From NCBI GenBank assembly GCA_017513085.1, contig JAFWDK010000012.1, forward strand, positions 1-64,000: a DNA stretch of 64,000 nt. Reading direction: 5' to 3'. Shown here in pieces: positions 7,534 to 37,160 of this stretch (the stretch's first letter is position 1; every line of letters begins with the position of its first letter). Below the pieces are notes generated by a model, which made no database searches, was not told the DNA's origin, and worked only from the letters and a program-made list of their open reading frames with translations. The stretch comes from Clostridiales bacterium (lineage in GTDB: Bacteria; Bacillota; Clostridia; Saccharofermentanales; Saccharofermentanaceae). Both the position numbers and the translations under genes were made by a program.

Positions 7534-10500
7534 ATGAAAAAGAAGATTTGGGGGGCAGGATGCATTATTGCTGCTTTAATTGCAGCTCCTATGTATGGAG
7601 CAAGTAAAGGGGTTGCGGTAAGAGCTGATGAATATGAACCTCAAGCTGGAGACGTGGCTATCAATGAAGAAAACTTCCCAGATGAATATTTCAGAGAGTG
7701 GATTAGTGAAAATCTTGATGCTACTCCAGATGGGGTTTTAACGAAGAGTGAAATAAGTCTTGTAACGAGAATCGACTGTAAAGACAGTCATATTGCTGAT
7801 CTTACCGGCGTGAAGTTTTTTACAAATCTTGAATCCTTAGATTGCCGTAACAATGTAATTGAAGAATTGGATTTGAGTGGAATGCCATATCTTGAAAACT
7901 TTTTGGCAGGCTACAATGTTCTCAGTAAAATCGATGCATCAAATTGCAAGAAATTGACTTTCTGGGGCATAAACTATGGTTATGGCAACAAGATGAGCGT
8001 TGAGGATACTATGTGGAATTGTACCGATAAAACAGGTATTTATGCATATAGTTATTATTATGGAAATCCATTAAAGTCAGTAGATTTTTCTGGGTGTATC
8101 AGTCTTGAGGTATTTGTGAATACAAACGATACACTTACTGAAGCTGATTTTTCTGGTTGCACCGCGCTCAAAAAGATTAATCTGACTAATAAGCAAATCG
8201 AATCGATAAACATAACTGGTTGCAGTAATTTGGAAGAAGTGCATTTGGCTGAAAATGAAATGCAAACTCTTGATTTGACTGGTTGCCAGAAGCTGAGAAT
8301 TCTTGAACTCTATTCTAATAAATTTGTGACTATAGATTTGACCCCATGTCCTAATCTGGAAGAACTTAACATAAATGCTAATCAGTTAAAGAATATAGAT
8401 GTTTCCTCAAACAAATTATTGAGACAATTAGTTTGTAAAGAAAACCAGTTAGTTTCGCTTGACGTAAGTAATCATGCGATGCTTGATGATTTTTCGTGCA
8501 GATTCAACAACATAAAGACACTCAACTTGAGTGGTTGCAAAAAGTTGACAGATCTATCGTATATTCACGAAGATAATCCGTTAGAGAGCCTGGACCTGTC
8601 AGATTGTATCAGTTTGAATGAATTCTCGATTAATGATACACCGCTTATTTCTGTTGACCTGAGTAGGTGTTCTGGACTAGTTAGGGTGGATCTGTCGAAT
8701 AATCAGCTTGAGGAGATTAGCCTGGACGGGTGTGATCATCTTCAGGAACTGAATGTATATAACAATAATCTTGAAGATTTGGATATTTCCACTTGTAAAC
8801 GACTGGAGACTCTTGATTGCAGACTCAACTATCTGACTAAAAAACCTTCTGCGAGCAATCTTACTGTTAAGTTTGATCCGCAGAAAATATTAGAGGCTCC
8901 TTCAGGATTCAAAGTTGAAACTGTCAGTGAAGAGAGCGTTACACTTGCTTGGGATGACGCAGGAGAAGACATACATTATGAGTTGTTCAGATCTGATTCC
9001 AAAGATGACGGGTACATAAGTATTTACAGTGCTGATCGTTGTACTTCATATACGGATGAGGATTTGAACCCTAATACAACATATTACTATAAGCTAAGAC
9101 TGTGGATATCTGTTGATAGAATAGTAATCGAAAGTCCTTTTTCTGATACTTTGGAAGCAAAGACAAAAGCACTTCCGACGCCTACTCCTACAGAGACACC
9201 GTCGCCAACACCAAATCCGGTAACTCCTACACCGACACCGGTAGTGAAAAAAACTGGTATTAAAATCGATGAAGAGCATTTCCCTGATAAGGCGTTCCGT
9301 AAATATGTTTCTGAGTCTATCGATAAAGATTCAAATGGATTGTTAAGTCAGGATGAAATAACTATTACTGATTTCATGGATGTCAGTGAACAGGGAATAC
9401 AATCAATCAAAGGAATTGAGTATTTTGCTGATTTAAAATGGCTTGGTTGCGAACATAATAGTATATCTACTATTGATGTAAGTAAAAATGCGAAACTAAC
9501 GAGTCTTTGGTGTGGAGATAATAAGATTACAGGACTTGTGATTAATCCGAATCTTATGTATCTTGAGTGCAATGATAATCTGTTAACGAGTTTAGATGTT
9601 AGTAAGAATAAAGAATTGGATGTGCTTGTAGCACATCACAATAAGCTAGCTTCGCTTGATATTTCAAACTGCAAAGTTAAAGGCGTTGTTGACGATGATT
9701 ATCTGGAGTTTGTAGAGAAAGAAGATTTCTATGCATACATTGATCCGGAAAAAAATGAGTATTATCTTTCTTTTGATAAGACTACAAAGATTATCGGTGC
9801 GAATGTTCCTGTCCCATCTACCGGATCTATCGCAGACTTCGTAGAGCGTCTTTATACGGTTGCGCTCGGTCGTCCTTCTGAGAAAGAGGGTAAAGAGTAT
9901 TGGGTAAAGGAAATCACAAATGGTAACAAGACCGGTGCTGATTGCGGTCTGTTCTTCCTAACAAGTGAAGAGTTCAACAACCGTGGCCTCAGTATTGAGA
10001 ACTTTGTAGAGACGCTTTACCAGACATTCTTCGGACGTGCTTCCGAACCGAATGGAAAAGCCTACTGGGTTGGTGAACTGAAGAGTGGAAGAAAGAGCAG
10101 GGCAGATGTCATCTGGGGCTTCATTGATTCGAAAGAATGGTGCAATATCTGTGCGGATTACGGAGTTAAGTCCGGCGCGCCGACAGCAAAAGCAGAGCAC
10201 GCATCGCAGAACGCGATCGATTTTGCAACACGTCTTTACACTTGCTGCCTCGGCAGAGCATCGGAAGAAGGTGGACTGAAGTACTGGTCTTTGGCACTTA
10301 CCAACCTTGAGCAGACAGGTTGCTCGGCAGCGAAGTTATTCTTTACCAGTGAGGAGTTTGTCAAATTCAAACTCAAAGACGATGAGTATGTAAGAAGACT
10401 GTACACGACGTTCATGGGCAGAGAGCCGGCTAAGGATGAGATAGCATACTGGATAGGCGAGATCAAGAAAGGAAGCCAGACCAGGTATAGCATTATGCAG

Positions 10501-10569
10501 TTCTTCGGTCAGTCGCCGGAGTTCACAAACATCTGTAAGAAGTACGGTATTGATCGTGGCACGATCTAG
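7534..10569 (+). CDS. Secreted LRR surface protein: signal peptide, LRRs, FN3, PT linker, second LRR block, three DUF4214-type repeats
   Basis: Signal peptide MKKKIWG..., NFPDEYFR cap, LxxLxxxxNxL repeats, FN3 (VTLAW..YTDEDLNPNTTYYY), FVERLYTVALGR...YW anchor repeats. Confidence 0.88.
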   Translation: MKKKIWGAGCIIAALIAAPMYGASKGVAVRADEYEPQAGDVAINEENFPDEYFREWISENLDATPDGVLTKSEISLVTRIDCKDSHIADLTGVKFFTNLESLDCRNNVIEELDLSGMPYLENFLAGYNVLSKIDASNCKKLTFWGINYGYGNKMSVEDTMWNCTDKTGIYAYSYYYGNPLKSVDFSGCISLEVFVNTNDTLTEADFSGCTALKKINLTNKQIESINITGCSNLEEVHLAENEMQTLDLTGCQKLRILELYSNKFVTIDLTPCPNLEELNINANQLKNIDVSSNKLLRQLVCKENQLVSLDVSNHAMLDDFSCRFNNIKTLNLSGCKKLTDLSYIHEDNPLESLDLSDCISLNEFSINDTPLISVDLSRCSGLVRVDLSNNQLEEISLDGCDHLQELNVYNNNLEDLDISTCKRLETLDCRLNYLTKKPSASNLTVKFDPQKILEAPSGFKVETVSEESVTLAWDDAGEDIHYELFRSDSKDDGYISIYSADRCTSYTDEDLNPNTTYYYKLRLWISVDRIVIESPFSDTLEAKTKALPTPTPTETPSPTPNPVTPTPTPVVKKTGIKIDEEHFPDKAFRKYVSESIDKDSNGLLSQDEITITDFMDVSEQGIQSIKGIEYFADLKWLGCEHNSISTIDVSKNAKLTSLWCGDNKITGLVINPNLMYLECNDNLLTSLDVSKNKELDVLVAHHNKLASLDISNCKVKGVVDDDYLEFVEKEDFYAYIDPEKNEYYLSFDKTTKIIGANVPVPSTGSIADFVERLYTVALGRPSEKEGKEYWVKEITNGNKTGADCGLFFLTSEEFNNRGLSIENFVETLYQTFFGRASEPNGKAYWVGELKSGRKSRADVIWGFIDSKEWCNICADYGVKSGAPTAKAEHASQNAIDFATRLYTCCLGRASEEGGLKYWSLALTNLEQTGCSAAKLFFTSEEFVKFKLKDDEYVRRLYTTFMGREPAKDEIAYWIGEIKKGSQTRYSIMQFFGQSPEFTNICKKYGIDRGTI

Positions 10570-10594
10570 AATTAGATAATTCAAGTAGTGAAGC

Positions 10595-10627
10595 AGTCCT
10601 CCTGTGGAAGCCATCCGCAGGAGGACT
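10595..10627 (+). terminator. Intrinsic terminator
   Basis: AGTCCTCCTGTGGA-AGCCA-TCCGCAGGAGGACT stem after stop codon. Confidence 0.7.
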
Positions 10628-10750
10628 TACATTTTCAATTGCCTTTGAAAAAATAAGTGTTTAAGCTTATCCATAACACACATCTTTCTTGGAATTCTGG
10701 GTGCGGTATAATAACTATAATGTGATTATGCGATACGGAGAATAAGTTGA

Positions 10751-11506
10751 ATGTTTGGAAAAGAGAATCATATTACGTTAGATGATTACAAATTGTTCTT
10801 GGAGATACTGTGGAACACCAACAGAACAGAAACAGAAGCTGTGCAAAAAGCAGTAGAGTATTTCCTGTGGGCGCTTTTCGGGCTTTCTTCTGACGTCAGC
10901 GTTGTTGATGTACATAACGATAACATAATTACTTCTAAACATGATCCGTCACGCTTTTACCTCTTGCGTGGTATTGAAGCTAAGAAAGAATCACTTACAA
11001 AAAAGCGAATGACAGAGAAGACCCGGGAAGATATAAAGTCACGATATGAAACTGCCCAGAATGAGTTTGCAAAAAGGAAAAACATGTATATGGGTGGGGA
11101 CGATAACGATAGTTTTTACTCAGGTCCGCCGGATCTGATGGTTGTGAAGAACTATAACTATGAAAACATTGAACATGGAAATGGTACGATTTGTTTTCTG
11201 GTAGAAACAAAAGAGTTTGAAGAAGATTTGAAAAAGATTCAGGAAAAAGATTCTAAGTTTTCACAGATTTTCTCACATATGACGCAAGCAAACAACGTCG
11301 TTCTTACTAATGGAAAAATGTGGATACTATATACACAGAAATCAAATGATCATCCGAACTATGACGAATGGAAACAAGAAGTATTACAGAATTCAAAGGT
11401 GTTTGAACTCTGGAATGACAAGAACGAAAAGAATACCGAAAAGTTTGAAGAGTTGTGTGAGACACTAAAAAATCTGGCGGCCAATACAAACAAAGTAACC
11501 TGTTAA
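10751..11506 (+). CDS. Stand-alone PD-(D/E)XK nuclease-like protein (HsdR N-terminal-like)
   Basis: PPDLMVV...FLVETK...Q...VVLTNGKMWILY motif series; TATAAT at 10707 and GGAG RBS. Confidence 0.6.
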   Translation: MFGKENHITLDDYKLFLEILWNTNRTETEAVQKAVEYFLWALFGLSSDVSVVDVHNDNIITSKHDPSRFYLLRGIEAKKESLTKKRMTEKTREDIKSRYETAQNEFAKRKNMYMGGDDNDSFYSGPPDLMVVKNYNYENIEHGNGTICFLVETKEFEEDLKKIQEKDSKFSQIFSHMTQANNVVLTNGKMWILYTQKSNDHPNYDEWKQEVLQNSKVFELWNDKNEKNTEKFEELCETLKNLAANTNKVTC

Positions 11507-11517
11507 TCTTGCATATT

Positions 11518-11600
11518 GTTCCAGCGTATAGATTAATTCATTCAAGAAGGCGGTTCCGAGATACAAGGGAACGGCCTTCTTTGGATTTGACATATTATCG
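11518..11600 (+). repeat. 83-bp direct repeat copy 2 (terminator)
   Basis: Matches 7135-7217 at offset 4383. Confidence 0.92.
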
Positions 11601-11628
11601 TTCTGTAAACTTTCACGAAGAAAAGGCC

Positions 11629-11692
11629 AAATTCGCTACTATTCTGATATTCTATGTTTAACGAAAAGAAAGCCTTGAGCAGGCTCTCTTAA
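11629..11692 (+). promoter_or_regulatory. Conserved leader element, copy B (first hairpin degenerate)
   Basis: TCGCTACTATTCT...AAGAAAGCCT-TGAGC-AGGCTCTCTTAA. Confidence 0.7.
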
Positions 11693-11723
11693 TCTTGATT
11701 GTATGTGGGAGGGGAATGAATAT

Positions 11724-14405
11724 ATGAAAAAAGCAGTGATAGTGACGGCATTGGTCGCATCTGTAACATTTGCTGTTTCTTCAATCAACTTGTTTGCTAA
11801 GAAGGTGGCCTATGCAGACGAAAATATAGTATATCCGCAGGCGGACGTGGCAATTGATGAGAAGAATTTCCCAGATGAGTATTTTAGAAAGTATGTATTG
11901 AATAATTTTGATCAAAATCACGATGGTACTCTTTCTGAAGCAGAGATTGCTGAAGTTACGAGAGTGGTTTATGAAGGTAAAAATGTAAAATCGCTTAAGG
12001 GAGTGGAATTTTTTACTGAACTAAAGGATTTGTGTTGTTCTAATTGTCAATTGACGAGTTTGGACGTGAGCAAGAATACGAATCTTACAGAATTGGACTG
12101 CAGATATAACCAGCTGACTAATCTGGATGTGAGCAAGAATGCGAATCTTACAAAATTGAAATGCGGTTCTAACCAGCTGACTAATCTGGATGTGAGCAAA
12201 AATACGAAGTTGGAAAATTTGAATTGTTATGGAAACCAACTGACTAATCTGGATGTGAGCAACAATCCGAATTTGATAGACTTTGATTGCTCGGAAAATC
12301 AATTGATAAGTCTGGATGTGAGCAACAATTCGAAGTTGGAAAACTTGACTTGTTTGGTAAACCAACTGACTAATCTAGATGTGAGCAACAATCCGAAGTT
12401 GAGATTCTTTAGTTGCAGGGAAAATCAATTGACAAGTCTGGATGTAAGCAACAATTTGCAGTTGAAAGTCTTGTATTGTGGTAAAAACAAACTGAAAAAT
12501 ATAGATTTAGGTCAAAATTCAAATCTGGAAGTATTGGGGTGCGAATTTAACCAGCTGACGAGTTTGGATCTTAGCAAACTTGGTTATTTGGATGCTCTGG
12601 TATGTGATAATAATCAGATTGATAAACTCGATGTTTCGAACTGTACGGAATTAATATCGCTGTGCAAGAAATTTGGTGTTCAGCAGAATATAACCGGAAT
12701 GTGTCAAGTGGCACACGAACAAGAATATCTTTTTTTCTCGGTCGATTCAGTTGTGAAGATGACACCAGAGTTATTCGTACCCATAATGCCAAATTCAATG
12801 AGTGTAGAAATTGATCTTTCAAATGAAGGTATTCCGCGTAATGGAAGTGATGATCCGATTCATGCATGGAATGCTTTATGGTATTTGGATATGGTGTATG
12901 ACTTGTTCGATAGTTACTATGATAGAGGTATTACGTCAACAGATTTAGATCGCGATGGTCATTACGATGTGGATGAATTCTATAATGGAGATTTTTACCT
13001 TAAAAAATCAGCTTCCTGTAACATCAAAGATGAATTTGTTTTTAAGAAAGACCAATTGAAAGATACGATCTACAAAGAAATTGCAATTGTATTTGGTGAG
13101 CATTATACAATATCGTTTGATGCAAATGGCGGAAGTGGAGTTATGGATTCGAGAAGGCTATTCGATGGAAAAGAGTTTGTACTCCCAGAATGTGAGTTTG
13201 CTGCACCGGAAGGAAAAGAATTTGACCGATGGAATCTGGGTGACCCCGGTGTTTCTGTTAAGATTACTGCCGATACCACGCTCAAAGCACAATGGAAAGA
13301 TATAATTTATTCAGTAAAAGTAACAACTGACGGGCATGGAACTGCGCTTGCTTCAGTAGATAATGGTGCGATGGGTACAGAAGTCACATTGAAGACACAG
13401 CCAAATGATGGCTATAAGTTTAAAGAATGGCAGGTCATATCTGGTGGAGTTACAATTAAGGATGATAAGTTCGTGATTGGTACTGAGAATGTAGAAATCA
13501 AGGCGTTTTTTGAAGCAGTATCTTCAAATCCTACTCCGAGCGTATTTCCAACGCCGCCAGCGGTCCCTGCAACTCCAACTCCAGTAGGGCAAACTCCTAC
13601 TAATGTTCCTACTCAGAATCCTACACCAACACAGCAGCCTACACCCGCTCCCTCCAAAGGCACTATCGCCGATTTCGTTGAGCGTCTTTACACGGTAGCT
13701 CTTGGGCGTGCATCCGAGAAAGATGGTAAAGAATTCTGGGTTAAAGAGATCACAAATGGTAACAAGACCGGTGCTGATTGCGGTCTGTTCTTCCTAACAA
13801 GTGAAGAGTTCAACAACCGTGGCCTCAGTATTGAGAACTTTGTAGAGACGCTTTACCAGACATTCTTCGGACGTGCTTCTGAACCGAATGGTAAAGCATA
13901 CTGGGTTGGTGAACTGAAGAAAGGATCGAAGAGTAGAGAAGATGTTATTCGTGGATTCATCGATTCTACAGAGTGGTGTAATATCTGTGCGGATTACGGA
14001 GTTAAGTCCGGCGCGCCGACAGCAAAAGCAGAGCACGCATCGCAGAACGCGATCGATTTTGCAACACGTCTTTACACTTGCTGCCTTGGCCGTGATCCAG
14101 AAGACGGAGGGCTGAAGTACTGGTCACTTGCCCTGACAAACTTGGAGCAGACAGGATGCACAGCAGCAAAAGAATTCTTCATGTCACAGGAGTTCGTCAA
14201 CCTTAAACTGAAGGATGACGAGTATATCAGGAGACTCTATACGACGTTCATGGGACGTGATCCTGAATCAAGCGAGATCGCATACTGGACGGGAGAAATC
14301 AAGAAAGGCACGCAGACCAGGTACAGCATCATGCAGTTCTTCGGTCAGTCACCGGAGTTTACGGAAATCTGCAAAAAGTACGGTATTGATCGCGGAACAA
14401 TCTGA
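11724..14405 (+). CDS. Secreted LRR surface protein with InlB B-repeat/Flg_new-like domains, PT linker and DUF4214-type repeats
   Basis: Signal peptide, NFPDEYFR cap, 21-aa LRRs (NQLTNLDVSKN), YTISFDANGGSG, GYKFKEW, same C-terminal anchor as 7534-10569. Confidence 0.88.
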   Translation: MKKAVIVTALVASVTFAVSSINLFAKKVAYADENIVYPQADVAIDEKNFPDEYFRKYVLNNFDQNHDGTLSEAEIAEVTRVVYEGKNVKSLKGVEFFTELKDLCCSNCQLTSLDVSKNTNLTELDCRYNQLTNLDVSKNANLTKLKCGSNQLTNLDVSKNTKLENLNCYGNQLTNLDVSNNPNLIDFDCSENQLISLDVSNNSKLENLTCLVNQLTNLDVSNNPKLRFFSCRENQLTSLDVSNNLQLKVLYCGKNKLKNIDLGQNSNLEVLGCEFNQLTSLDLSKLGYLDALVCDNNQIDKLDVSNCTELISLCKKFGVQQNITGMCQVAHEQEYLFFSVDSVVKMTPELFVPIMPNSMSVEIDLSNEGIPRNGSDDPIHAWNALWYLDMVYDLFDSYYDRGITSTDLDRDGHYDVDEFYNGDFYLKKSASCNIKDEFVFKKDQLKDTIYKEIAIVFGEHYTISFDANGGSGVMDSRRLFDGKEFVLPECEFAAPEGKEFDRWNLGDPGVSVKITADTTLKAQWKDIIYSVKVTTDGHGTALASVDNGAMGTEVTLKTQPNDGYKFKEWQVISGGVTIKDDKFVIGTENVEIKAFFEAVSSNPTPSVFPTPPAVPATPTPVGQTPTNVPTQNPTPTQQPTPAPSKGTIADFVERLYTVALGRASEKDGKEFWVKEITNGNKTGADCGLFFLTSEEFNNRGLSIENFVETLYQTFFGRASEPNGKAYWVGELKKGSKSREDVIRGFIDSTEWCNICADYGVKSGAPTAKAEHASQNAIDFATRLYTCCLGRDPEDGGLKYWSLALTNLEQTGCTAAKEFFMSQEFVNLKLKDDEYIRRLYTTFMGRDPESSEIAYWTGEIKKGTQTRYSIMQFFGQSPEFTEICKKYGIDRGTI
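12045..12485 (+). repeat. 63-bp tandem repeats encoding LRR units
   Basis: Units start at 12045, 12108, 12171, 12234, 12297, 12360, 12423 (AACCAGCTGACTAATCTGGATGTGAGCAA-like). Confidence 0.9.
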
Positions 14406-20627: not shown

Positions 20628-21039
20628 AGCGAACAGACAACTTGTGAGGATAATATAACTGGGTGGAGGAGAGAGGGGTGGGTCGCGTAGTTTAATTGCC
20701 TCATCAAAACATTCAATTGCCTCGTTTGAGGTGAAAATGAGGCAATTGAATGGGGGGATGAGTATGTTGAAACAAGGATAATGTATTCCACAAGATTGGA
20801 GGGATAACTTATTGTAGAAAAAACAGGTCTAACGTTTAGATAAGTAAAATCAAGAAGGTGGAACCGAGATTTATTGAATGCAAAAATGTAGTACGTTATC
20901 GTTAATTCTGAACTATCAAAAAAGAAATTACAAAATGTAAACGATTATTAAATTCTTTTGCTTAGCTATTTAGATAAATTGAGTTTTGGCTATACTATGT
21001 TTAGAGGTTACATTTTTTTGTGATTGGAAATGTAAAAAG

Positions 21040-23703
21040 ATGATTGATGTATTGTGGGCAAAAAAAGATGGCAAGCACTGGCTATCGTTAAAGTCTCATC
21101 TATTGGATACTGCGGAAACCATGGATTATTTATGGAATAATTGGGTATCACAAGACTTAAGAGATAGACTTTGTAATGCATTTAGGCAGAATTTGTCCGT
21201 AGATGAATGTGGCAGATTCTTGAGATTTCTTGCGCTTGCTCATGATGTCGGAAAAGCGACTCCCATTTTTCAGTCAAAGATATTGCAAGGAAAGAATGAT
21301 GCAGATGCTGTCATTCTAAAAAGATTCATTAAGAAAGAAATACCACTTAAGGAACATTTCTTAAGAGATCTCTATCATGCTCAGGCTGGATACAACCTTC
21401 TTATTGAAGCGGGATGTAATTTGAACGCAGCTTCAATCGTTGGTTCGCATCATGGAATGCCATCTCAAAAGCAACCATCAAATGATAATCAAGAAGCATA
21501 TTATTTGGAGAGCGAAGGTAAGTGTGTGTGGTCCAAACTGCAAAAAGACATCTTATCCTGGGTTTTGCAGCAGTCTGGTTATGCTTCGTTTGAAAGTGTT
21601 CCAGTACCAGCGTTCAATTCCCAGGTTTGGATGACGGGCCTTCTTATTATGGCAGACTGGATTGCAAGTAATAGCGCTTTTTTTCCAATGATTGCAGTAG
21701 ATAGTCTAGTCACTGGAAATAATACGCATCGGCTGAATTCTTCTGATCTGGTTTTCCTACGAGGGGGCTTTTTTGAATCCATGAGGCAAAGTAACCTTGC
21801 TCTTCCAGAAGTTTTCAGGCATAGGTTTTCATTTTATCCCAACACGGTTCAACTTGAAACATGTGGTATAGCGAATAGTATGTCGGATTCCGGTATCATA
21901 GTTCTGGAAGCTCAGATGGGAAAAGGAAAGACTGAAGCTGCGCTTGCGGCAGGTGAAATTCTAGCGTCGAAATTCGACAAAAAGGGTTTATTCTTCGCGT
22001 TGCCTTCTCAGGCTACTTCGGATGGTATGTTTGTAAGAGTAAAAGAGTTTCTTGAAAGCGAAAACTACAAAGGAAGCATAAATCTTGTTCATGCTAAAGC
22101 CGCATACAACAGAGAATATAATGAGATTCCTCACATTAATTCCGTTTGGGATGAACAAGACGACCTATCTCTTGGAATAGGAGAGTGGTTTGAAGGGAAA
22201 AAACAATCCCTATTATCGAATTTCGTAGTTGGCACTGTTGATCAACTTCTTATGGCAGGTTTACAACAAAAACATGTTATGTTGAGGCACTTGGGATTAG
22301 CAGACAAAATCGTTATTGTGGATGAAGTTCATGCTTATGATGCATACATGTCTGTGTATCTTAAAAAGGCGTTATCCTGGCTAGGTGCATATCATGTACC
22401 GGTTATTCTTCTGTCAGCTACGCTTCCACACAAAAAGAAAATGGAACTTATTACTGCGTATGTTGGAAAAGAACGCAGTAAGAATATTGAAATACCTCCC
22501 TATTCTGGAGAGTATCCTGTACTTACTTATTATGATGATCTGAAAATTCAGTCAAAGCCTATAGCAAATACAGATTTGACTAGATCTGTTGATGTCGATT
22601 ATTCTTCTTCAGATATTATTGGCTTAGCTGAAATCATAGAAAAGACCTTGGATCGATCTGATGGTTGTGTAGGCGTTATTCTTAATACTGTCAAGAATGC
22701 ACAGAAGCTTTACATGATGCTAAAAAAACAGTTTTCAGATGATGAGATAATACTAATTCATTCAGGTTTCCTTGCAAACGATAGGGTAGCGATAGAAGAA
22801 AAAATCAGAAAGACTTTGGGTCGCTCAGGAATGGCCACCAGACCACAAAAGTTCATTGTAATCGGAACGCAAGTTCTTGAACAGTCATTAGATATTGATT
22901 TTGATTGGCTTATAACAGAACAGTGCCCCATAGACCTTTTGCTGCAGAGAATAGGAAGGCTTCATAGGCATGGTAGAGAGAGACCTGAGATCTTCAGTCA
23001 AGCAAAATGTCTTGTCGTTATGCTTTCTGACCAGGAAAGAGATGCGTCAGAATTGATATATGGACGTTATCTTCTGCGAAGAACTAGAGCGGTTATTGAA
23101 GCTAAATCAATGCGGATTCGAATACCGGACGATTTATCCCAACTGGTAGAAGATGTGTATGATTGTGAAGACTTGTCAGATGCAGATTATTCTAATTGGG
23201 TTAGATCAATACAGAACAAAGATTACGAGGCAAAGCAATTCTGTATAGCTGACCCGGTGGATAGATTTGATCGAAAATTTCTTCGAAATATGGATTACTT
23301 GCTTGACAACAGAAAACTGTGTGTAACTACAGAGGGCGAGGCAAGAGTACGTGATACTAATGGCTCAATAGAGGTTGTGATTTTTCAAATGAAACATGGA
23401 AGGATTTATCATGTCTCCGGAGATAAAGAAGTATGCTCTGATAAGGAACTGGCATGTGAGACCGTCCGATTACCTTACTCTCTTTCTGGACCGCATATGA
23501 TACAGGAGACGGTGAAAGCACTGGAGAACCTTCGAAACGATACATTGTCAGATGATTTAAGAAACAGTGTATGGCTTAAGGATACGCTATTTTTAGCATT
23601 TAACGAGAATCAGAAAACTAAACTTGAAGTTGGAAAAAAGGTATATAGCATCAAATATGACAATATGACAGGAATTCATGTAGAGAAGGAGGAAAATACG
23701 TGA
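21040..23703 (+). CDS. cas3: CRISPR-associated helicase/nuclease Cas3
   Basis: HD domain (SHLLD, AHDVGK, GSHHG, MADWIAS), MGKGKTEAA, DEVH, LSATLP, QRIGRLHR. Confidence 0.97.
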   Translation: MIDVLWAKKDGKHWLSLKSHLLDTAETMDYLWNNWVSQDLRDRLCNAFRQNLSVDECGRFLRFLALAHDVGKATPIFQSKILQGKNDADAVILKRFIKKEIPLKEHFLRDLYHAQAGYNLLIEAGCNLNAASIVGSHHGMPSQKQPSNDNQEAYYLESEGKCVWSKLQKDILSWVLQQSGYASFESVPVPAFNSQVWMTGLLIMADWIASNSAFFPMIAVDSLVTGNNTHRLNSSDLVFLRGGFFESMRQSNLALPEVFRHRFSFYPNTVQLETCGIANSMSDSGIIVLEAQMGKGKTEAALAAGEILASKFDKKGLFFALPSQATSDGMFVRVKEFLESENYKGSINLVHAKAAYNREYNEIPHINSVWDEQDDLSLGIGEWFEGKKQSLLSNFVVGTVDQLLMAGLQQKHVMLRHLGLADKIVIVDEVHAYDAYMSVYLKKALSWLGAYHVPVILLSATLPHKKKMELITAYVGKERSKNIEIPPYSGEYPVLTYYDDLKIQSKPIANTDLTRSVDVDYSSSDIIGLAEIIEKTLDRSDGCVGVILNTVKNAQKLYMMLKKQFSDDEIILIHSGFLANDRVAIEEKIRKTLGRSGMATRPQKFIVIGTQVLEQSLDIDFDWLITEQCPIDLLLQRIGRLHRHGRERPEIFSQAKCLVVMLSDQERDASELIYGRYLLRRTRAVIEAKSMRIRIPDDLSQLVEDVYDCEDLSDADYSNWVRSIQNKDYEAKQFCIADPVDRFDRKFLRNMDYLLDNRKLCVTTEGEARVRDTNGSIEVVIFQMKHGRIYHVSGDKEVCSDKELACETVRLPYSLSGPHMIQETVKALENLRNDTLSDDLRNSVWLKDTLFLAFNENQKTKLEVGKKVYSIKYDNMTGIHVEKEENT

Positions 23704-28315: not shown

Positions 28316-29260
28316 ATGGATACATATAATACAAAACCAGAATTGCAATCCTTAGTTCCTGTAAATGACAGGATGAGTTTTTTGTATGTTGAAAAATGTA
28401 ATGTCAATCGTGAGTCTGGTGCTATATCATTTACGAATAAAGAAGGGCAGATCAATGTTCCAGCTTCATCCATTTCTGTTCTGTTACTAGGCCCTGGATG
28501 TGACATATCACATAGAGCTTTGGAGCTTATAGCTGATTCAGGAACATCTGTTGTGTGGGTGGGGGAGCATGGTGTCAGATATTACTGCCATGGTCGACCT
28601 TTAACCCGGACCTCTTCGTTGCTTATAAAACAGGCTACTATGGTCTCGAATGAAAGAAAGCGACTTGATGTTGCTCGTAAAATGTACGCAATGAGATTCC
28701 CAGGGGAGGATATTTCCAAGATGACATTAGCCCAGTTGAGAGGCAGAGAAGGCGCACGGGTTAGGAGAGTTTACAGAGAATTTGCTCATAAGTTTGGTGT
28801 TCCCTGGAATGGACGCGAATATGATCCAGAGGACTTTAACAATTCTAATGAGATTAACAAAGCTCTTTCTGCCGCCAACATCTGTTTATATGGTCTAGCG
28901 CATAGTGTAATTGCGGCACTAGGACTATCTCCGGGCTTGGGCTTTATTCACACTGGCCATGAAAGATCATTTGTCTATGATCTTGCTGATTTATATAAGG
29001 CAGAAATATCTATTCCAATTTCATTCCAAACGGTAGCGGAGACCCCGTCTGATATTGAATCTGCAGTTAGACACAAAATGAGAGACTGCTTTTATTCAAC
29101 AAAAGTTTTGAGACGGATGGTTGCGGACATATATACTATTTTATCGGAGAATGAAGAAGAAACTAGTGTAGAGGTGGATGTGTTGAAATTATGGGATAAC
29201 AAACAGGGTGAGGTTGATTCCGGGAAGCAGTATTCCTGTGATGAAGAAGATATAAAATGA
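28316..29260 (+). CDS. cas1: Cas1 (type I-E)
   Basis: LLLGPG, WVGEHGVRYY, QLRGREGARVR, GLGFIHTG, FVYDLADLYK. Confidence 0.97.
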   Translation: MDTYNTKPELQSLVPVNDRMSFLYVEKCNVNRESGAISFTNKEGQINVPASSISVLLLGPGCDISHRALELIADSGTSVVWVGEHGVRYYCHGRPLTRTSSLLIKQATMVSNERKRLDVARKMYAMRFPGEDISKMTLAQLRGREGARVRRVYREFAHKFGVPWNGREYDPEDFNNSNEINKALSAANICLYGLAHSVIAALGLSPGLGFIHTGHERSFVYDLADLYKAEISIPISFQTVAETPSDIESAVRHKMRDCFYSTKVLRRMVADIYTILSENEEETSVEVDVLKLWDNKQGEVDSGKQYSCDEEDIK

Positions 29261-30108
29261 TTGTATTATCTCTGTCAAAATGTTCTGCTTCTTTGAGAGG
29301 TGATTTGACCAAATGGTTGATGGAAATAGATACTGGAGTCTATGTTGGACGAGTTTCTGCTCGAGTCAGAGATCATTTATGGAAGAAGGTTGAAAACAAT
29401 ATAGGAGAAGGTCGTGCTATTCTCGTGTTCAGCGCACAGAACGAGCAAGGCTTTGATATAAAGACAATTAATTCAGAAAGATATCCTATTGATTGTGACG
29501 GACTTAAGTTAATGATGATACCTGCTAAGGAACCTCTCAAAGAAAGGAAGATTCATCAAACGAGAATCAAGAAAGCAAGTAGTAACCCAACAACGAAGTA
29601 TCCAGCAAATTCCTATGTGGTGCTTGACATAGAAACAACAGGCCTTGATAAAACAAGCGATAGAATCATCGAGTTTGCTTGCTTATCTGTAAGCAGAGAT
29701 GAGATTACTAAAGAGTTGCATGGATTTATAAAACATGAGCAACCTCTTTCCGATATGATAGTCAATTTAACAGGAATTACAGATGAAATGATTAATGGAG
29801 GAATGGATGAAAAAAGAGCATTAACAGATATATTAGACTTTATAGGACAAGAGTCTATTGTTATTCACAATGCCGAGTTTGACATTGGTTTTTTAAATGC
29901 AGCTTTACTTAGACACAACATGCCTCTCCTTTCAAATGTGTGTGTAGATACGCTAAAAATGGCAAGAAGGAGAGTTAAGGATGTAGAAAACTATAAGCTT
30001 GACACCCTAATTAAGCGTTTCTCATTAACTGCTCGGAAAAAACATAGAGCGTTAAGTGATTGTCATATAACATATGAGTTGTACAAAAGATTAATTGAAA
30101 TCGTATAA
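29257..30108 (+). CDS. cas2: Cas2 fused to a DEDDh (DnaQ-like) 3'-5' exonuclease
   Basis: LRGDLTKWLMEIDTGVYVG (I-E Cas2), then VLDIETTG, HNAEFD, HRALSD. Confidence 0.96.
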   Translation: MIVLSLSKCSASLRGDLTKWLMEIDTGVYVGRVSARVRDHLWKKVENNIGEGRAILVFSAQNEQGFDIKTINSERYPIDCDGLKLMMIPAKEPLKERKIHQTRIKKASSNPTTKYPANSYVVLDIETTGLDKTSDRIIEFACLSVSRDEITKELHGFIKHEQPLSDMIVNLTGITDEMINGGMDEKRALTDILDFIGQESIVIHNAEFDIGFLNAALLRHNMPLLSNVCVDTLKMARRRVKDVENYKLDTLIKRFSLTARKKHRALSDCHITYELYKRLIEIV

Positions 30109-30159: not shown

Positions 30160-31712
<1,553 letters not shown>

Positions 31713-32098
31713 TGACCTTTGGAGATGAACAGCTGTTTCCTGCGAGAAAAACGTAGTTTGAAACATTTTGAATGACACATATAAGCCATGACTGCACAAG
31801 CTCATTCAAAACGACAAATCTCTTATATTGTTACCATGGATCTTGTGAAAAAGCCTGCAGAAGCAATGTATGCCTTGCTAAACAATAGTTATAGTTCGCA
31901 TTACAATTTTCGTATCTAAGTTTGCAAAAAATCAGGAACTTGTTTATGACAGAAGCGGGATAGACGAGACATTGATTACTGCAGAATGGACGTGAGAAAG
32001 ATTGAATATAATATATGAATATCCATGGTATTTGCTTAGGTTGCACATATATCCCTGAATAGTTAGAATTAGTATTAGAAATACAATTCTGCTGGGGG

Positions 32099-33997
32099 AT
32101 GCATATGCTTGTCTATTCTGGAATCAAAACGGATTTTATGCGTGATGTAGATGACGGTGTTCTTGCGGGGAAAATCAAGCAGACTATCCTTGAGAAGATG
32201 GGGAGAAGGACGCCGGATAGTGAGTTCCGTTCTTGGGAGAATTCCATGAAGGATATGTTTATTGTGATGAGTGATTCTCAGATCCCTGAAGATTCCGGTG
32301 TGGCGATTGAATATAACATTCCGCAGACGGCGAAGCGTGTGGACTTTATTATATCCGGTTATGACAAAGACAACCGTCCTTCCATTGTGGTGATTGAACT
32401 CAAGCAGTGGGAGATGCTCAAGGCTATTGCAGGGATGGATGCTTTGGTAGAGACATATACGGGTGGAGCAAATAGAAGAGTGGTACACCCGTCTTATCAG
32501 GCCTGGTCATATGCGCAGCTGATCAAAGACTATAACTCTACAGTCCAGGATAAAGAGATTCAGATCTGGCCTTGCGCATATTTGCATAACTATGCACGTA
32601 AAGAAGACGATCCAATCGATAGTGAGTGGTACGATGAGTACCAGAAAGAAGCCCCTGCATTTACAAAAGGTCAGAACGCTAAGCTGCGTGAGTATATCAA
32701 GAAAAGCATTGTAAAAGGCGACAGCAAAGAAGTTCTTTACTATCTTGAGAATGGAAAGATACGTCCTTCCAAGAGCCTGCAGGATTCCATCGGAAAGATG
32801 TTGAAAGGTAATCCTGAGTTCATCATGATCGATGAACAGAAAGTGGTATACGAAGAAGTAGTTCGGCTATCAGAGCTTTGCCAGAAAGATAATAAGAAAA
32901 GGACGATTATCTGTCAGGGCGGCCCGGGAACCGGAAAGACGGTTATTGCTGTAAATCTTCTTGCAGAACTGACGCAAAGAGGACAGATGGTCCAGTATGT
33001 ATCTAAGAATGCTGCGCCTCGTCAAGTCTATCTTCGAAAGTTGAAGGGGACTTATTCAAAGAGTAGCGTCAATAATATGTTCAAAGGTTCCGGCCAGTAT
33101 TTTGAGGCGCCTGAAAACTTTGCGGGGACACTGTTGGTGGATGAGGCACACCGATTAAATGAGAAATCCGGAATCTACCATAACAACGGAGAGAATCAGA
33201 TAAAAGAACTGATCCATTCCTGTCTGTGTAGTGTTTTCTTTATTGACGAAGATCAGCGTGTGACGATGGATGATATCGGCAGCATTGACCAGATAAAACG
33301 ATGGGCAAGAGAGGCGGATTCTCAGGTATATGAGATGGAGCTGGTTTCTCAGTTCCGTTGCAATGGTTCGAATGGTTATATGGCATGGCTGGACGATGTT
33401 CTTCAGATCCGTGAAACGGCAAATCCGGATCTGGATGGATTGGATTTTGATATCCGCATCTGTGATACTCCGGGTGAAGTGCGTGATCTGATTTTTGAGA
33501 AGAACAGAAGCACAAACCGCGCGCGTATCCTTGCGGGTTATTGCTGGAATTGGAATAAGAAAGAAGCAAACAACACGGATTATCATGACATAAAGATCGG
33601 AGACTTCGAAATGAGTTGGAATCTTGACGGCGGAGAACCTTTTGCTGTATCGGATACGTCTGTGAATGAGATCGGATGCATTCATACATCACAGGGCCTG
33701 GAGTTTGATTATGTCGGCGTAATAATCGGCGAGGATATCCGCTATGAGGATGGTAAAGTCATTACCGACTTCTCGAAACGCGCTCAAACTGATCAGTCAC
33801 TTCGAGGAATCAAGAAACTGAATAAGGAAAATCCTGAAGAAGCACGGGAGCGTGCAGATCAGATTATCCGGAATACATACCGAACACTTCTGACACGCGG
33901 AATGAAAGGTTGCTATATCTACTGTGTGGACTCGGAGTTGGAACGGTATCTGAAAGAAAGAATAAACGCATATAACTCGAAGAAGGTGAATACATGA
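32099..33997 (+). CDS. DUF2075 (Schlafen group 3-like) SF1 helicase with N-terminal PD-(D/E)XK-like nuclease domain
   Basis: IEYNIP..KRVDFIISG...VVIELKQW, HPSYQAWSY; GGPGTGKT, LLVDEAH, SQFRCNG, GCIHTSQGLEFDY, NTYRTLLTRG. Confidence 0.9.
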   Translation: MHMLVYSGIKTDFMRDVDDGVLAGKIKQTILEKMGRRTPDSEFRSWENSMKDMFIVMSDSQIPEDSGVAIEYNIPQTAKRVDFIISGYDKDNRPSIVVIELKQWEMLKAIAGMDALVETYTGGANRRVVHPSYQAWSYAQLIKDYNSTVQDKEIQIWPCAYLHNYARKEDDPIDSEWYDEYQKEAPAFTKGQNAKLREYIKKSIVKGDSKEVLYYLENGKIRPSKSLQDSIGKMLKGNPEFIMIDEQKVVYEEVVRLSELCQKDNKKRTIICQGGPGTGKTVIAVNLLAELTQRGQMVQYVSKNAAPRQVYLRKLKGTYSKSSVNNMFKGSGQYFEAPENFAGTLLVDEAHRLNEKSGIYHNNGENQIKELIHSCLCSVFFIDEDQRVTMDDIGSIDQIKRWAREADSQVYEMELVSQFRCNGSNGYMAWLDDVLQIRETANPDLDGLDFDIRICDTPGEVRDLIFEKNRSTNRARILAGYCWNWNKKEANNTDYHDIKIGDFEMSWNLDGGEPFAVSDTSVNEIGCIHTSQGLEFDYVGVIIGEDIRYEDGKVITDFSKRAQTDQSLRGIKKLNKENPEEARERADQIIRNTYRTLLTRGMKGCYIYCVDSELERYLKERINAYNSKKVNT

Positions 33998-34314
33998 ATG
34001 ATCAGACGATAGCAAGGATTAGAAAGTTTAAAGAAGAACGGGATTGGGATAAGTTTCATACTCCGGCAAATCTCGCGAAATCCATATCCATCGAAGCAAA
34101 TGAACTACTCGAGTGCTTTCAGTGGAGCGATACGGAATACAATCTCCAGCATGTGAAAGAAGAACTGGCGGATGTGCTTGTTTATTGCCGAGACTTGCTC
34201 GATAAACTCGGACTGGACGAAGACGAAATCGTCAATATGAAGATGGATCAGAATGAAGCGAAGTATCCGGCTGACAAGGCTAGAGGAAATAGTACAAAGT
34301 ATGACGAGCTGTGA
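33994..34314 (+). CDS. MazG-like nucleotide pyrophosphohydrolase
   Basis: ERDWDKFH, IEANELLECFQW, EELADV, KMDQNEAKYP; ATGA overlap with the DUF2075 gene. Confidence 0.92.
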   Translation: MNDQTIARIRKFKEERDWDKFHTPANLAKSISIEANELLECFQWSDTEYNLQHVKEELADVLVYCRDLLDKLGLDEDEIVNMKMDQNEAKYPADKARGNSTKYDEL

Positions 34315-34559
34315 ATGGTGAATCTCAGCTTAGTTGGTGAGAATAAGTGAAAACTATATAGTGCATGCTTTGGGGGAGTAAATGCGTCGTAGAGTTGAAA
34401 TAGGTGTAAATGATTTAGCGACATGGTGTAAAACACATAACACCTAATTGATGAGTTGGATTCAGCTAACGAATTTCAAAAAGGGAAGCAGTTCAATGAA
34501 ATGACATATTATCAGTTCTAGCCATGCTTTTTCAAAATGCATGGTTTCAGGGAGAATAC

Positions 34560-35540
34560 ATGAGATTTGAAATTACAACATCATATGGAAAAGGAAATAT
34601 TCAGGCTATTGCTATAAGTAAGAAATTAAACGATTTGCAGATTTCTGAGGGAGAAAATGTTGTTTTTGATTTTCAAAAGTATAAAGAAAAGAATCCGTTT
34701 AGCAATCTCTTGTTAATCAATTCGATTAGACGATTTCGCAAAAGATTTCCTGAGTCTGAGATGAGGTGCTCATATGTTGAGGATGGAGGGTATTTATCTC
34801 ACATTGGATTTTTTAAGAAATTGGGGCTGAATATCGGAAATGAACCAGGAGCAGCTCATGCAAATTCGAGGTATGTTCCTATAACTGATATTATATTAGA
34901 AAACGACTTTTATGGGAGTATTGAAGATATTGCTAAGCGACTAACGAATACACTCCAATTTGATGATGATCTTCAAGAAACATCTGAGTATGTTCTGATT
35001 GAGACGATTCGCAATGTATTTGAACATGCTGGCGTGAAAGAGGTTTCAGTTGCCGCGCAGAAATGGCCGACAAAGAATCTTGTGGAAATTGCAATTATGG
35101 ACACAGGTTGTGGAATAGTTGGCAGTATGGGGAAAAAGTATTCTCTTAACGAGGTTGAACTGTTGAAGTATGCTTGTAAGCCTGGTATTACAACAGGATC
35201 GAATTTTACATATTTAGATCTGGATGATCCATGGAGGAATTCAGGGTATGGGTTATACATGTTAAAAGAGTTAACACTCGAATACAATGGATCGTTTATT
35301 ATCTGTAGTGGAGATAAGGCTGTTAGATACAGAAAGAAAGACAAACAAATAGAAGAAAAGGTTTTTTCTGCTGGCTGCGAAGGTACGATTATCTGTTTGC
35401 GGTTTTCTACAGAACAACAACCTTCTTTCTCGGAGGTCCGAAAGAGAATCCTAAAGAGTGGCGAAGACGAAGCGAAGAGAATTGCAGGTGCGATTCAAAA
35501 GGCGTCAAGGTCTTCGGGAGGAAGATATATTATTTCTTGA
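34560..35540 (+). CDS. ATP-binding protein: STAS-like N-terminus + GHKL/HATPase domain, no HisKA
   Basis: YLSHIGFF, ETIRNVFEHA (N box), IAIMDTGCGI (G1), NSGYGL (G2), EGTII. Confidence 0.78.
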   Translation: MRFEITTSYGKGNIQAIAISKKLNDLQISEGENVVFDFQKYKEKNPFSNLLLINSIRRFRKRFPESEMRCSYVEDGGYLSHIGFFKKLGLNIGNEPGAAHANSRYVPITDIILENDFYGSIEDIAKRLTNTLQFDDDLQETSEYVLIETIRNVFEHAGVKEVSVAAQKWPTKNLVEIAIMDTGCGIVGSMGKKYSLNEVELLKYACKPGITTGSNFTYLDLDDPWRNSGYGLYMLKELTLEYNGSFIICSGDKAVRYRKKDKQIEEKVFSAGCEGTIICLRFSTEQQPSFSEVRKRILKSGEDEAKRIAGAIQKASRSSGGRYIIS

Positions 35541-35695
35541 TGAAATAATGTTGGATAAAGATGCTGTGGATTTTGGCTCGCTGATTGTTAATCAAAGCTG
35601 GTAATGATTCAAGTGAGATACAGCTCGTTCTGTACAGACATATGGTGTTTGTATGGGCTCAAACAATAAAATCTAGGATTGGTAGGTTATAGAAG

Positions 35696-36064
35696 ATGGA
35701 CACAAATCAAGCGATACAGATCATACACGACAACTACAAGTGTGAGGGAAACAGCTTCATATACTATCTCCATGAGAAAAGTACTTTTGACACGGAAGGG
35801 TTCTGGGCGTTCTATGATAGTGTTGTGGCGTTGGTGGAGCGTGAGGAGTTGAAGACTGCGGAGTTGACCAGGGAGATCACGGGTGTCTACCAGTTGATAC
35901 TGAAGTATTTTGTGTTCCATTTTGATCCGGCGGACGGGTATGTGATCGCGGGGTTCCCGAAGGAGTATATCGGGTACATTGAGAGGGTCGAGTATGCTTT
36001 GATGGCGTACTATAGTGGGAATATGAGGCTTGTGATAGAGGACGACTTTGAGTTGGAGAGGTAA
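35696..36064 (+). CDS. Imm41-like immunity protein
   Basis: NY...SFIYYLHE...FD...FW..YD, HFDPADGY pattern recalled for the Imm41 family. Confidence 0.6.
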   Translation: MDTNQAIQIIHDNYKCEGNSFIYYLHEKSTFDTEGFWAFYDSVVALVEREELKTAELTREITGVYQLILKYFVFHFDPADGYVIAGFPKEYIGYIERVEYALMAYYSGNMRLVIEDDFELER

Positions 36065-36067
36065 CGC

Positions 36068-36634
36068 ATGAACGAGGTTTTGGTGGATGAGGCGATTGGG
36101 TTCATCCGGGGATTGTTTGCAAACAGGAGTGATGGGCATGATGTGGAGCATTCGTTGAGGGTGTACCGGAATGCGAAGAAGATCGCTTCGTGTGAGTGTG
36201 GTTTTGATGAAGAGGTCGTGGTGTTGGCGGCGTTGCTTCATGATGTGGACGATAGTAAGCTTTTTGAGACGAAGGACAATGCGAATGCCAGAGGTTTTCT
36301 GAATTCCGTGGGGATTTCGGCAGGGAAAATCGATAAGATCTGTGCGGTGATTAATTCCGTTTCTTTTTCGCATAACAGGGGGAGACGGCCGGATTCTGTT
36401 GAAGGGAAGATCGTGCAGGATGCGGACCGACTTGATGCGATGGGGGCGATTGGGATCGCGAGGACGTATGCCTATGGGGGAAGCCATGGGCGGTCACTGG
36501 AGATGTCGAGGCAGCATTTTTACGATAAACTGTTGCTTTTGAAGGATGAGATGAATACGGAAAAGGGAAGGGAGCTGGCGCAGAGACGGCATGCTTTTCT
36601 GGAAGCTTTTCTGAATGAATTGGAGAATGAATGA
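36068..36634 (+). CDS. HD-domain phosphohydrolase
   Basis: GHDVEHSLRV, AALLHDVDD, VQDADRLDAMGAIGIAR. Confidence 0.92.
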   Translation: MNEVLVDEAIGFIRGLFANRSDGHDVEHSLRVYRNAKKIASCECGFDEEVVVLAALLHDVDDSKLFETKDNANARGFLNSVGISAGKIDKICAVINSVSFSHNRGRRPDSVEGKIVQDADRLDAMGAIGIARTYAYGGSHGRSLEMSRQHFYDKLLLLKDEMNTEKGRELAQRRHAFLEAFLNELENE

Positions 36635-37160
36635 GAGGAAAATATACATGAAAGTTATAAAAACGATTTTCGACGATTGTCTGGTCGTTGAACCGACGCA
36701 AAGAAACGACGAAAGATGCGATATGGCGCTTCTGTATAGTCATGAGGGAGAGATGAAAGAGATCTTTCACGGATTTACGCTGACGGAGCAGCGCTTCTAT
36801 CGGATGAGGAAGCATGCGTTTTTTGGGATCCATAAGGGGCCGCCGAGACTGGTCTGCATTATTGCGGGGAAGGGTCTGGATTATGTGGTCGATCTGAGGA
36901 AGGATTCGCCTACATATAAGCAGTACCAGACGATCGAACTGAGTGGTGATGCGCCGAAGATCGTCTTCATTCCTTCGGGGTTCGGTCATGCTTTTCTTTC
37001 TCTTGCAGAAGGTACGATCGAGGCTTTCGGCATGGATCTGGATGCGCCGTTTGAGAGGAGCGGGCCGGTCAACTATAAGTCTCCGGGAATCGACTTGAAA
37101 CTTCCTGTTTCAGATGTGATCCTGGCGGACTATGACAGGGATGCGGCTATGTTAGAATAA
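36627..37160 (+). CDS. RmlC-like cupin (dTDP-4-dehydrorhamnose 3,5-epimerase family, divergent)
   Basis: VVDLRKDSPTY, FIPSGFGHAF; start either 36627 or 36648. Confidence 0.75.
   Translation: MNERKIYMKVIKTIFDDCLVVEPTQRNDERCDMALLYSHEGEMKEIFHGFTLTEQRFYRMRKHAFFGIHKGPPRLVCIIAGKGLDYVVDLRKDSPTYKQYQTIELSGDAPKIVFIPSGFGHAFLSLAEGTIEAFGMDLDAPFERSGPVNYKSPGIDLKLPVSDVILADYDRDAAMLE

Follow-up and report, generated by a model that had tools for sequence, protein, structure and literature searches.

Nuclease-helicase proteins built around DUF2075 are already known as defense factors. Nhi of Staphylococcus epidermidis (SERP2475), a validated defense, is described by Bari et al. (10.1101/776245) as a PD-(D/E)xK nuclease combined with a superfamily 1B (SF1B) helicase that overlaps DUF2075. 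"Nhi-like", reported by Millman et al. (2022) as a validated single-gene defense that carries an N-terminal domain predicted to be a nuclease, plus DUF2075, is said to be organized as Nhi is, without sequence identity to it (10.1101/2022.05.11.491447), and phages are reported to escape it through loss of a DNA methylase (10.1101/2022.08.27.505566). Small nucleotide-hydrolyzing partners have been described beside enzymes of another kind: Xu et al. (2011, PMC3141236) count at least 60 SauUSI-like enzymes with a linked MutT/NUDIX pyrophosphohydrolase, the role of which is unknown. Lutz et al. report DUF2075 nucleoside triphosphatases next to DUF3427 restriction enzymes, DefensePredictor places MazG among its predicted, unvalidated defense domains (PMC13092281), and rare PUA-HAD systems are described in which a MazG-like domain takes the place of the effector that targets deoxynucleoside triphosphates (dNTPs) (10.64898/2026.01.15.699771). 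Here we analyze a locus from a Clostridiales bacterium (assembly GCA_017513085.1, contig JAFWDK010000012.1) in which a predicted nuclease-helicase gene, gene A, is coupled to gene B, which encodes a DCTPP1-like, MazG-family nucleoside triphosphate (NTP) pyrophosphatase. The window, by which we mean the whole stretch analyzed, comprises positions 1 to 64,000 of the forward strand of this contig, and all window features given below lie on that strand.

Gene A occupies positions 32099–33997 as an open reading frame (ORF) listed at 632 amino acids (aa), and gene B occupies 33994–34314 (106 aa). The ATG of B shares the letters ATGA (33994–33997, read directly from the sequence) with the TGA of A, and a Shine-Dalgarno-like AAGGTG lies just 5′ of this overlap. 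The second ATG of gene A, at 32105, is the likely start rather than 32099, because a G-rich ribosome site directly adjoins 32099, the homologues have their first residue at the equivalent of M3, and database proteins of identical sequence have 630 aa, the length that this start would give. We lean towards the view that A and B together form a horizontally mobile two-gene cassette that defends against phages or other mobile elements, with A acting as an Nhi-type effector and B as its auxiliary.

A recurrent, optional and mobile pair

The pairing was followed through 105 loci that carry a relative of gene A, namely the window locus itself (L001), a further 24 obtained from 400 genomes belonging to its class, and those of the 80 best among 568 relatives detected on contigs representing one genome per species. 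Gene B adjoins A on the upstream side in 31 of these loci and on the downstream side in 22, and in 6 more it is upstream but separated from A by one gene. Three loci have B at a greater distance or on the opposite strand, no B was found in 31, and in the remaining 12 the flank is too short to say. In sum, of the 93 informative loci, 59 have B within 1 kb of A with both genes on one strand, in either gene order. All-against-all clustering of the 1362 neighboring ORFs returned B as the sole widely recurrent cluster besides A, with 59 loci compared with 8 for the next. At the level of whole genomes, a B-like gene is present in 20 of the 24 genomes that carry A versus 23 of the 375 that do not, although these are related genomes and not independent observations.

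Fused proteins tell the same story in both orders. Ten of the 120 longer B relatives listed carry PF09848, the helicase family of gene A. By BLAST, the order is A-B in P0133 and P0134 (735 aa) and in P0194, and B-A in P0183 (748 aa) and in four fungal proteins. For some of the metagenomic fusions, an artefact of gene calling is conceivable. The fungal proteins (P0234, P0235, P0239 and P0240; 478–683 aa) have an N-terminal B-like MazG domain followed by a DUF2075 helicase and come from four genera, Westerdykella, Monosporascus, Alternaria and Fusarium; one of them is named as a GIY-YIG domain-containing protein. The A-B pairing is real and exceeds chance, but it is not obligatory. A variant arrangement is seen in an Oxalobacter sp. 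contig (L043, ∼8085–11860), where a single B gene is followed by two A genes in tandem.

The distribution of gene A is patchy: within the class it is present in 24 of 399 genomes and in 21 of 216 genera. Relatives that share more than 50% identity come from Bacillota, Actinomycetota, Pseudomonadota, Bacteroidota, one spirochaete and several archaea, and this high identity across phyla and domains argues for horizontal transfer. Gene A also matches 93 plasmid records (from Methanosphaera, Hymenobacter, Halalkalicoccus, Marivirga and others) and 4 phage records. On a Marivirga plasmid, the gene upstream of the A relative is annotated "nucleotide pyrophosphohydrolase". A plasmid of Bacillus sp. 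(NZ_CP152438.1, L138, 2208–5800) carries in sequence, by the annotation of its record, an NTP pyrophosphohydrolase of 107 aa, an HNH endonuclease domain protein of 350 aa and a DUF2075 helicase protein of 637 aa that is 25.7% identical to A; HNH genes recur near A also in L024, L031 and L046.

Restriction and other defense genes recur around A. A SauUSI-type type IV enzyme (PLD nuclease, ResIII helicase and DUF3427; PADLOC mREase_IV, 1008 bits) is found near A in 7 loci, and the 131-aa NUDIX partner of this enzyme (PDC-S07) in 8. Other recurrent neighbors are Fic proteins (PDC-S72, 5 loci) and members of the GmrSD family (4 loci), and in 2 loci an AbiU2 HEPN protein lies between B and A. B-like genes that occur without A adjoin a type IV enzyme in L116 (408 bits) and GmrSD in L113. 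The SauUSI-type enzyme and its NUDIX partner stand as a pair beside the A/B cassette in L058 (12402–15771), L063, L083, L096, L059, L090 and L100, and in genome G376 (L006 and L116), where the order is MazG, type IV enzyme, NUDIX and A, all on one strand.

Domains and catalytic residues

The helicase part of gene A is well defined. PF09848 (SLFN-g3_helicase, formerly DUF2075) matches aa 268–611 (32900–33931) with a Pfam E value of 5e-100. The full-length AlphaFold2 (AF2) model, built with 94 homologues, has a predicted local distance difference test score (pLDDT) of 86.5 and a predicted template modeling score of 0.85, and Foldseek, which also supports the SF1B assignment, relates it to RecD (1.7e-10), SLFN11 (5e-10) and Dna2 (1.5e-9), as well as to RecD2, Upf1 and Dda. 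In the Walker A motif GGPGTGKT (aa 274–281; 32918–32941), G274 and G277–K280 are invariant, and in the Walker B motif DEAH (aa 348–351; 33140–33151), E349 is invariant, while D348 and H351 reach at least 90% conservation. Further helicase motif residues are Q386, R420, TSQG (530–533) and R600. Across the 94 homologues, the residues that never vary include Q386, R420 and R600, together with G277–K280 and E349 of the Walker motifs and H130, P131, E100, Q134 and Y138 of the N-terminal part.

The N-terminal 262 residues have no Pfam match, and a separate AF2 model of aa 1–262 (pLDDT 87.5) returned nothing at E ≤ 1e-3 when Foldseek compared it with the PDB. In exhaustive VIA-align comparisons of the same region, all top matches were nucleases of the restriction-endonuclease fold, at moderate scores throughout (all Z < 8): VC1899 (7.1), Can2 (6.3), Cdn1 (6.2), Kpn2I (6.2), Card1 (5.6), Upx (5.6), NucC (5.2), Bse634I (5.2) and McrC (4.7). 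Within this region lie the motif E71…D82…E100-L-K102 (32309–32404), in which E71, D82 and K102 are kept in at least 90% of the homologues, and the motif H130-P-S-Y-Q134-A-W-S-Y138 (32486–32512), whose HPxxQxxxY pattern we take to resemble the QxxxY motif of RecB/Cas4-type nucleases. Because the moderate VIA-align scores come together with the near-invariant E71, D82 and E100xK102 and with the invariant HPxxQxxxY, the N-terminal domain (∼aa 1–205; 32099–32713) is taken to be a predicted PD-(D/E)xK, restriction-endonuclease-like nuclease. A helical linker follows it, to ∼aa 262.

Gene B matches PF12643 (MazG-like; Pfam E value 8e-17, 61.7 bits against a cut-off of 27) and phrog_3301 "pyrophosphatase" (E value 4e-13). 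It aligns almost end to end with solved structures, the archaeal-type pyrophosphatase 4qgp (E value 1e-19) and deoxycytidine triphosphate (dCTP) pyrophosphatase 1, also called DCTPP1 or RS21-C6 (E value 1e-15). In PADLOC it has no meaningful match, the score to PDC-M24A being 17.7 bits. The metal-binding MazG motif E34-A-N-E37 (ExxE) lies at 34093–34104 and the MazG motif E56-E57-L-A-D60 (EExxD) at 34159–34173. All 56 partner proteins examined keep E34, E37, E57 and D60 unchanged, so that gene B very probably encodes an active enzyme. An earlier reading of this DNA from its letters and ORFs (hereafter the sequence-only reading) had described intact E..D..ExK, SF1 helicase and MazG motifs; all are present and conserved, with the correction that the second MazG motif is EExxD and not EExD. 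DCTPP1 has been described as a sanitizer of 5-modified dCTP, and its relatives as hydrolyzing dCTP.

Genes resembling B occur in other company as well. Contig 14 of the same genome (L139, 3933–6152, minus strand) carries a second MazG-like gene of 86 aa (PF12643, E value 4e-13) that is 84% identical to B over aa 33–106. It lies directly upstream of a gene for a 569-aa protein whose sole recognized domain is a C-terminal HNH nuclease, and the two may be another pyrophosphatase-nuclease pair. Close relatives of B (59–73% identity) are fused to NUDIX, Macro or NADAR domains (P0154, P0159, P0166, P0153, P0155, P0164, P0171 and P0231), all of which act on nucleotides or ADP-ribosylated nucleic acids.

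Proposed mechanism and its rivals

We infer a defense function for the cassette, the substrate of B, and any dependence of A on modified DNA. In the scheme that we propose, gene A would be the effector: its ATP-driven SF1B motor would load on or track foreign DNA and its N-terminal PD-(D/E)xK domain would cut that DNA, often alongside the type IV restriction enzymes encoded nearby. The product of gene B, an all-alpha NTP pyrophosphatase, would hydrolyze noncanonical, probably 5-modified, dCTP-type nucleotides to the monophosphate. Its activity may be tied to nuclease-helicase restriction because B is fused to A in both orders and because type IV enzymes have an analogous NUDIX partner. We suggest, tentatively, that when phages with modified cytosine or related bases infect the cell, B clears the modified dNTPs that are then produced. 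Their removal would starve phage replication and would keep modified bases out of the host DNA while A attacks modified or replicating phage DNA. B would be an auxiliary, and it is not an obligatory antitoxin, since it is often absent and has been swapped between A lineages.

A broader and more doubtful generalization is that MazG-like and NUDIX pyrophosphatases are an interchangeable accessory of nuclease-helicase restriction in general, hydrolyzing modified phage dNTPs such as 5-hydroxymethyl-dCTP and 5-methyl-dCTP. Phages that replace cytosine would then be starved, and the host chromosome would be kept from acquiring the very mark that the nucleases attack. If so, restriction has a nucleotide-pool arm that has gone unrecognized since the NUDIX linkage was described in 2011 and that is kept as fused proteins even in fungi.

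Such a role would matter in several ways. First, should the proposal hold for the pair, an accessory gene that is very widespread would acquire a function. Second, the linkage between type IV restriction enzymes and NUDIX hydrolases, unexplained for 15 years, would be accounted for. Third, bacterial immunity would be seen to police modified DNA precursors in the nucleotide pool, much as DCTPP1 has been proposed to do in animal cells. Finally, these cassettes would have to be considered when therapeutic phages with modified genomes are chosen, and they might yield enzymes selective for modified dNTPs. If A acts alone and B is a passenger sanitizer, the locus would be an ordinary new member of the Nhi-like group.

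A number of observations weigh against the cassette, and several of them concern the independence of its two parts. No B gene of any kind is found in the flanks of A in 31 of the 93 informative loci, and the two nearest relatives of gene A (L026 and L027, 79–80% identity) lack B and have unrelated genes downstream. Across 52 loci (1326 pairs), the pairwise identities of A show only a weak correlation with those of B (Mantel r 0.18, a value reached by 23 of 999 permutations). With B absent from a third of the informative loci, it can be argued that B cannot therefore be central to the mechanism. Some B-like genes sit in housekeeping-looking contexts, beside MatE, MetE or PepF. As regards gene A, the PADLOC models for Nhi (42.5 bits) and AbiO (47.6 bits) match aa 241–422 only, that is, the first helicase lobe. 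No PADLOC model fits gene A over its full length, the best matches (PDC-S41, AbiO and Nhi) all being partial, and no separate modification-reading domain is recognized by Pfam or stands out in the AF2 model. PADLOC was also run on randomly sampled neighboring ORFs of 150 aa or longer, 120 from the 283 within 3 kb of A and 120 from the 181 lying at least 6 kb away. The defense families matched at E ≤ 1e-15 numbered 113 near and 124 far, so that the far set cannot serve as a baseline.

A generic dependence on cytosine methylation is not supported. C5 methyltransferases (PF00145) occur in 13 of the 24 genomes with A and in 156 of the 376 others and are thus not rarer where A is present, and in G189 and G299 one lies within ∼3 kb of A. 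Tested in this way, as an anticorrelation with PF00145, a generic dependence of A on 5-methylcytosine (5mC) gave a negative result. The window's own genome has no PF00145 C5 methyltransferase. If A depends on a modification, that modification should be either sequence-specific or something other than plain 5mC, and a reader of base modifications could conceivably lie inside the nuclease or the helicase domain of A.

The phylogeny of A shows how loosely its partner is held. In a FastTree tree of 94 A proteins, which omits 11 loci for partial coverage or stops, the pairing changes state at least 23 times, and in an aerobic Bacillales clade 16 of 19 rows stand alone without a pyrophosphatase. At L017, B is 72% identical to the window's B, and A only 46% identical to the window's A. 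Weak correlation of the kind exemplified by L017 points to B modules having been swapped among A lineages. The candidate two-gene defense put forward by the sequence-only reading is upheld in part, given conservation and fusion in both orders, retained catalytic residues, patchy and mobile occurrence, and defense genes as neighbors; it needs qualifying in that A is often found without B.

It is useful to set the proposed cassette against other explanations of the same data. It is unlikely, though of the alternatives this one survives best, that the role of B is self-protection only. On that account A would be a modification-dependent, type IV-like nuclease, and the sole task of B would be to stop modified dNTPs, salvaged after the degradation of phage or methylated DNA, from entering the host chromosome, which without B would become a target of A. 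The likeness of B to DCTPP1 and the described sanitizing role of that enzyme would fit, as would the parallel NUDIX partner of SauUSI-type enzymes, the B-like genes that directly adjoin a type IV enzyme and GmrSD, and the reported escape of phages from Nhi-like through methylase loss. Such an account is difficult to reconcile with the many informative loci in which A, including its closest relatives, does without B, with the missing anticorrelation between A and C5 methyltransferases, or with the lack of a visible modification reader in A. The occurrence of A without B also disfavors the suggestion of the sequence-only reading that MazG protects the host from its own nuclease, if this is meant as an obligatory immunity.

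We also give little weight to a function outside defense, whether in DNA repair or replication stress, with a Dna2-like enzyme and a pool sanitizer, or in the maintenance or competition of mobile elements. The fold of A does resemble those of Dna2 and RecD, relatives are found on plasmids and in phage records, and fused homologues exist in fungi. Against it stand the very patchy occurrence, the high identity across phyla and domains that points to transfer, and the variable neighbors, among which restriction and abortive-infection genes recur; moreover, the architecture of A is one common to validated defense proteins.

Also improbable, in our view, is nucleotide depletion, in which A would degrade DNA and B would be a further effector, bringing down the level of canonical dCTP in infected cells in the manner of defensive dCTP deaminases and dGTPases. 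The dCTP hydrolysis described for DCTPP1 relatives, the place of MazG on the DefensePredictor list and the MazG-like swap in PUA-HAD systems all lend it some color. At 106 aa, however, B has no sensor or regulatory domain, constitutive hydrolysis of dCTP would be costly, and close B relatives occur alone in housekeeping-like contexts. Finally, the idea that A and B are unrelated genes that happen to adjoin here, to which the many genomes with A but not B and the weak co-variation of the two might seem to point, is refuted by the comparative data, that is, by same-strand adjacency in both orders across phyla, the 4-nt overlap here and the fused proteins in both orders, and can be set aside as highly improbable.

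The window and the known systems

Gene A begins 387 nt after the end (31712) of a CRISPR array with a type I-E-like repeat, which spans 30160–31712 with a 61-nt period and 24 in-register copies. A type I-E cas3 gene lies at 20986–23703 (PADLOC Cas3e, 623 bits), and we infer the subtype of the array from this Cas3e upstream. The placement of the two ORFs, their ATGA overlap and the distance to the array are as the sequence-only reading had given them. An ORF of 283 aa at 29257–30108, in the position of cas2 just before the array, has by eye a DnaQ-type exonuclease-like motif, VVLDIETTGL, in its second half. PADLOC matches none of the ORFs between 345 and 19880, and the "island" in this window therefore consists of only the CRISPR-Cas system and the A/B pair, perhaps with gene C.

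Gene C (34524–35540, 338 aa) follows just after B. It has a weak match to GHKL ATPases (HATPase_c, 20.7 bits), a 30-bit PADLOC match to the DrmA N-terminus, and a match to phrog_3364 (E value 1e-24). Considered as a third member of the cassette, it was rejected, since in none of the other loci does a relative of it adjoin A or B; it may represent a defense candidate in its own right. Farther on (35696–36634), there are a 122-aa ORF that matches no family and, starting 4 nt after it, an ORF for a 188-aa HD-domain phosphohydrolase (PF01966, E value 8.5e-12; NCBIfam PRK10119-like, 85 bits, below the cut-off of that model). The G+C content of the window shifts at ∼36 kb, most 1-kb windows having 37–45% before this point, the CRISPR repeats excepted, and 45–56% after it; the low-G+C part takes in the cas operon, the array, A, B and gene C. 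A scan for promoters and terminators over 31650–36700 found no excess over shuffled sequences (13 promoter-like sites where shuffles average 11.5, and 3 terminator-like sites where they average 2.6). A weak −35/−10 match lies upstream of gene A at 32042–32069.

Compared with described systems, gene A comes closest to Nhi and Nhi-like. Nhi has the same plan of a nuclease and an SF1B/DUF2075 helicase and, as its description has it, shares with gene A the predicted structural relatives Dda, Upf1 and Dna2; unlike gene A, it has no pyrophosphatase partner. The PADLOC scores suggest that gene A is a distant relative of Nhi and AbiO, with a likeness limited to the helicase core. The highest of them, 55.7 bits for PDC-S41, is spread over two stretches, the better of which aligns aa 408–609 with positions 439–623 of 657. 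Nhi-like, compared by description only, again has a predicted nuclease joined to PF09848. It is a single gene, whereas gene A is coupled to a MazG-like gene, although the Bacillales clade of A mostly stands alone; and the escape of phages by loss of a DNA methylase is reported for Nhi-like only. As for gene B, it shares with DCTPP1/RS21-C6 and 4qgp a near whole-length alignment that has both ExxE and EExxD in place. DCTPP1 differs in its length of 170 aa, compared with 106, and gene B is a bacterial accessory gene.

A parallel to the pair as a whole is provided by SauUSI and its NUDIX partner. In both cases a nuclease-helicase is accompanied by a small NTP pyrophosphohydrolase, which in the case of SauUSI has an unknown role. 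Of the two nuclease-helicases, only SauUSI has a measured dependence on 5mC and 5-hydroxymethylcytosine. The two also differ in their parts, since SauUSI has a PLD nuclease, a superfamily 2 helicase and a DUF3427 reader, and its pyrophosphatase partner has another fold. The SauUSI/NUDIX and A/B pairs nevertheless stand side by side in L058, L063, L083, L096 and G376 (L006, L116). At L116, a MazG-like gene replaces or joins NUDIX beside the SauUSI-type enzyme, and in P0154, P0159 and P0166 NUDIX and MazG are fused. Our literature search found no published description of DUF2075 with MazG (or, one irrelevant paper aside, of MazG with Schlafen). The novelty claimed by the sequence-only reading is reduced by gene A, which follows the plan of Nhi and Nhi-like. 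Overall, gene A is not new in kind, and its coupling with gene B is an uncharacterized two-gene form of a known type of defense protein.

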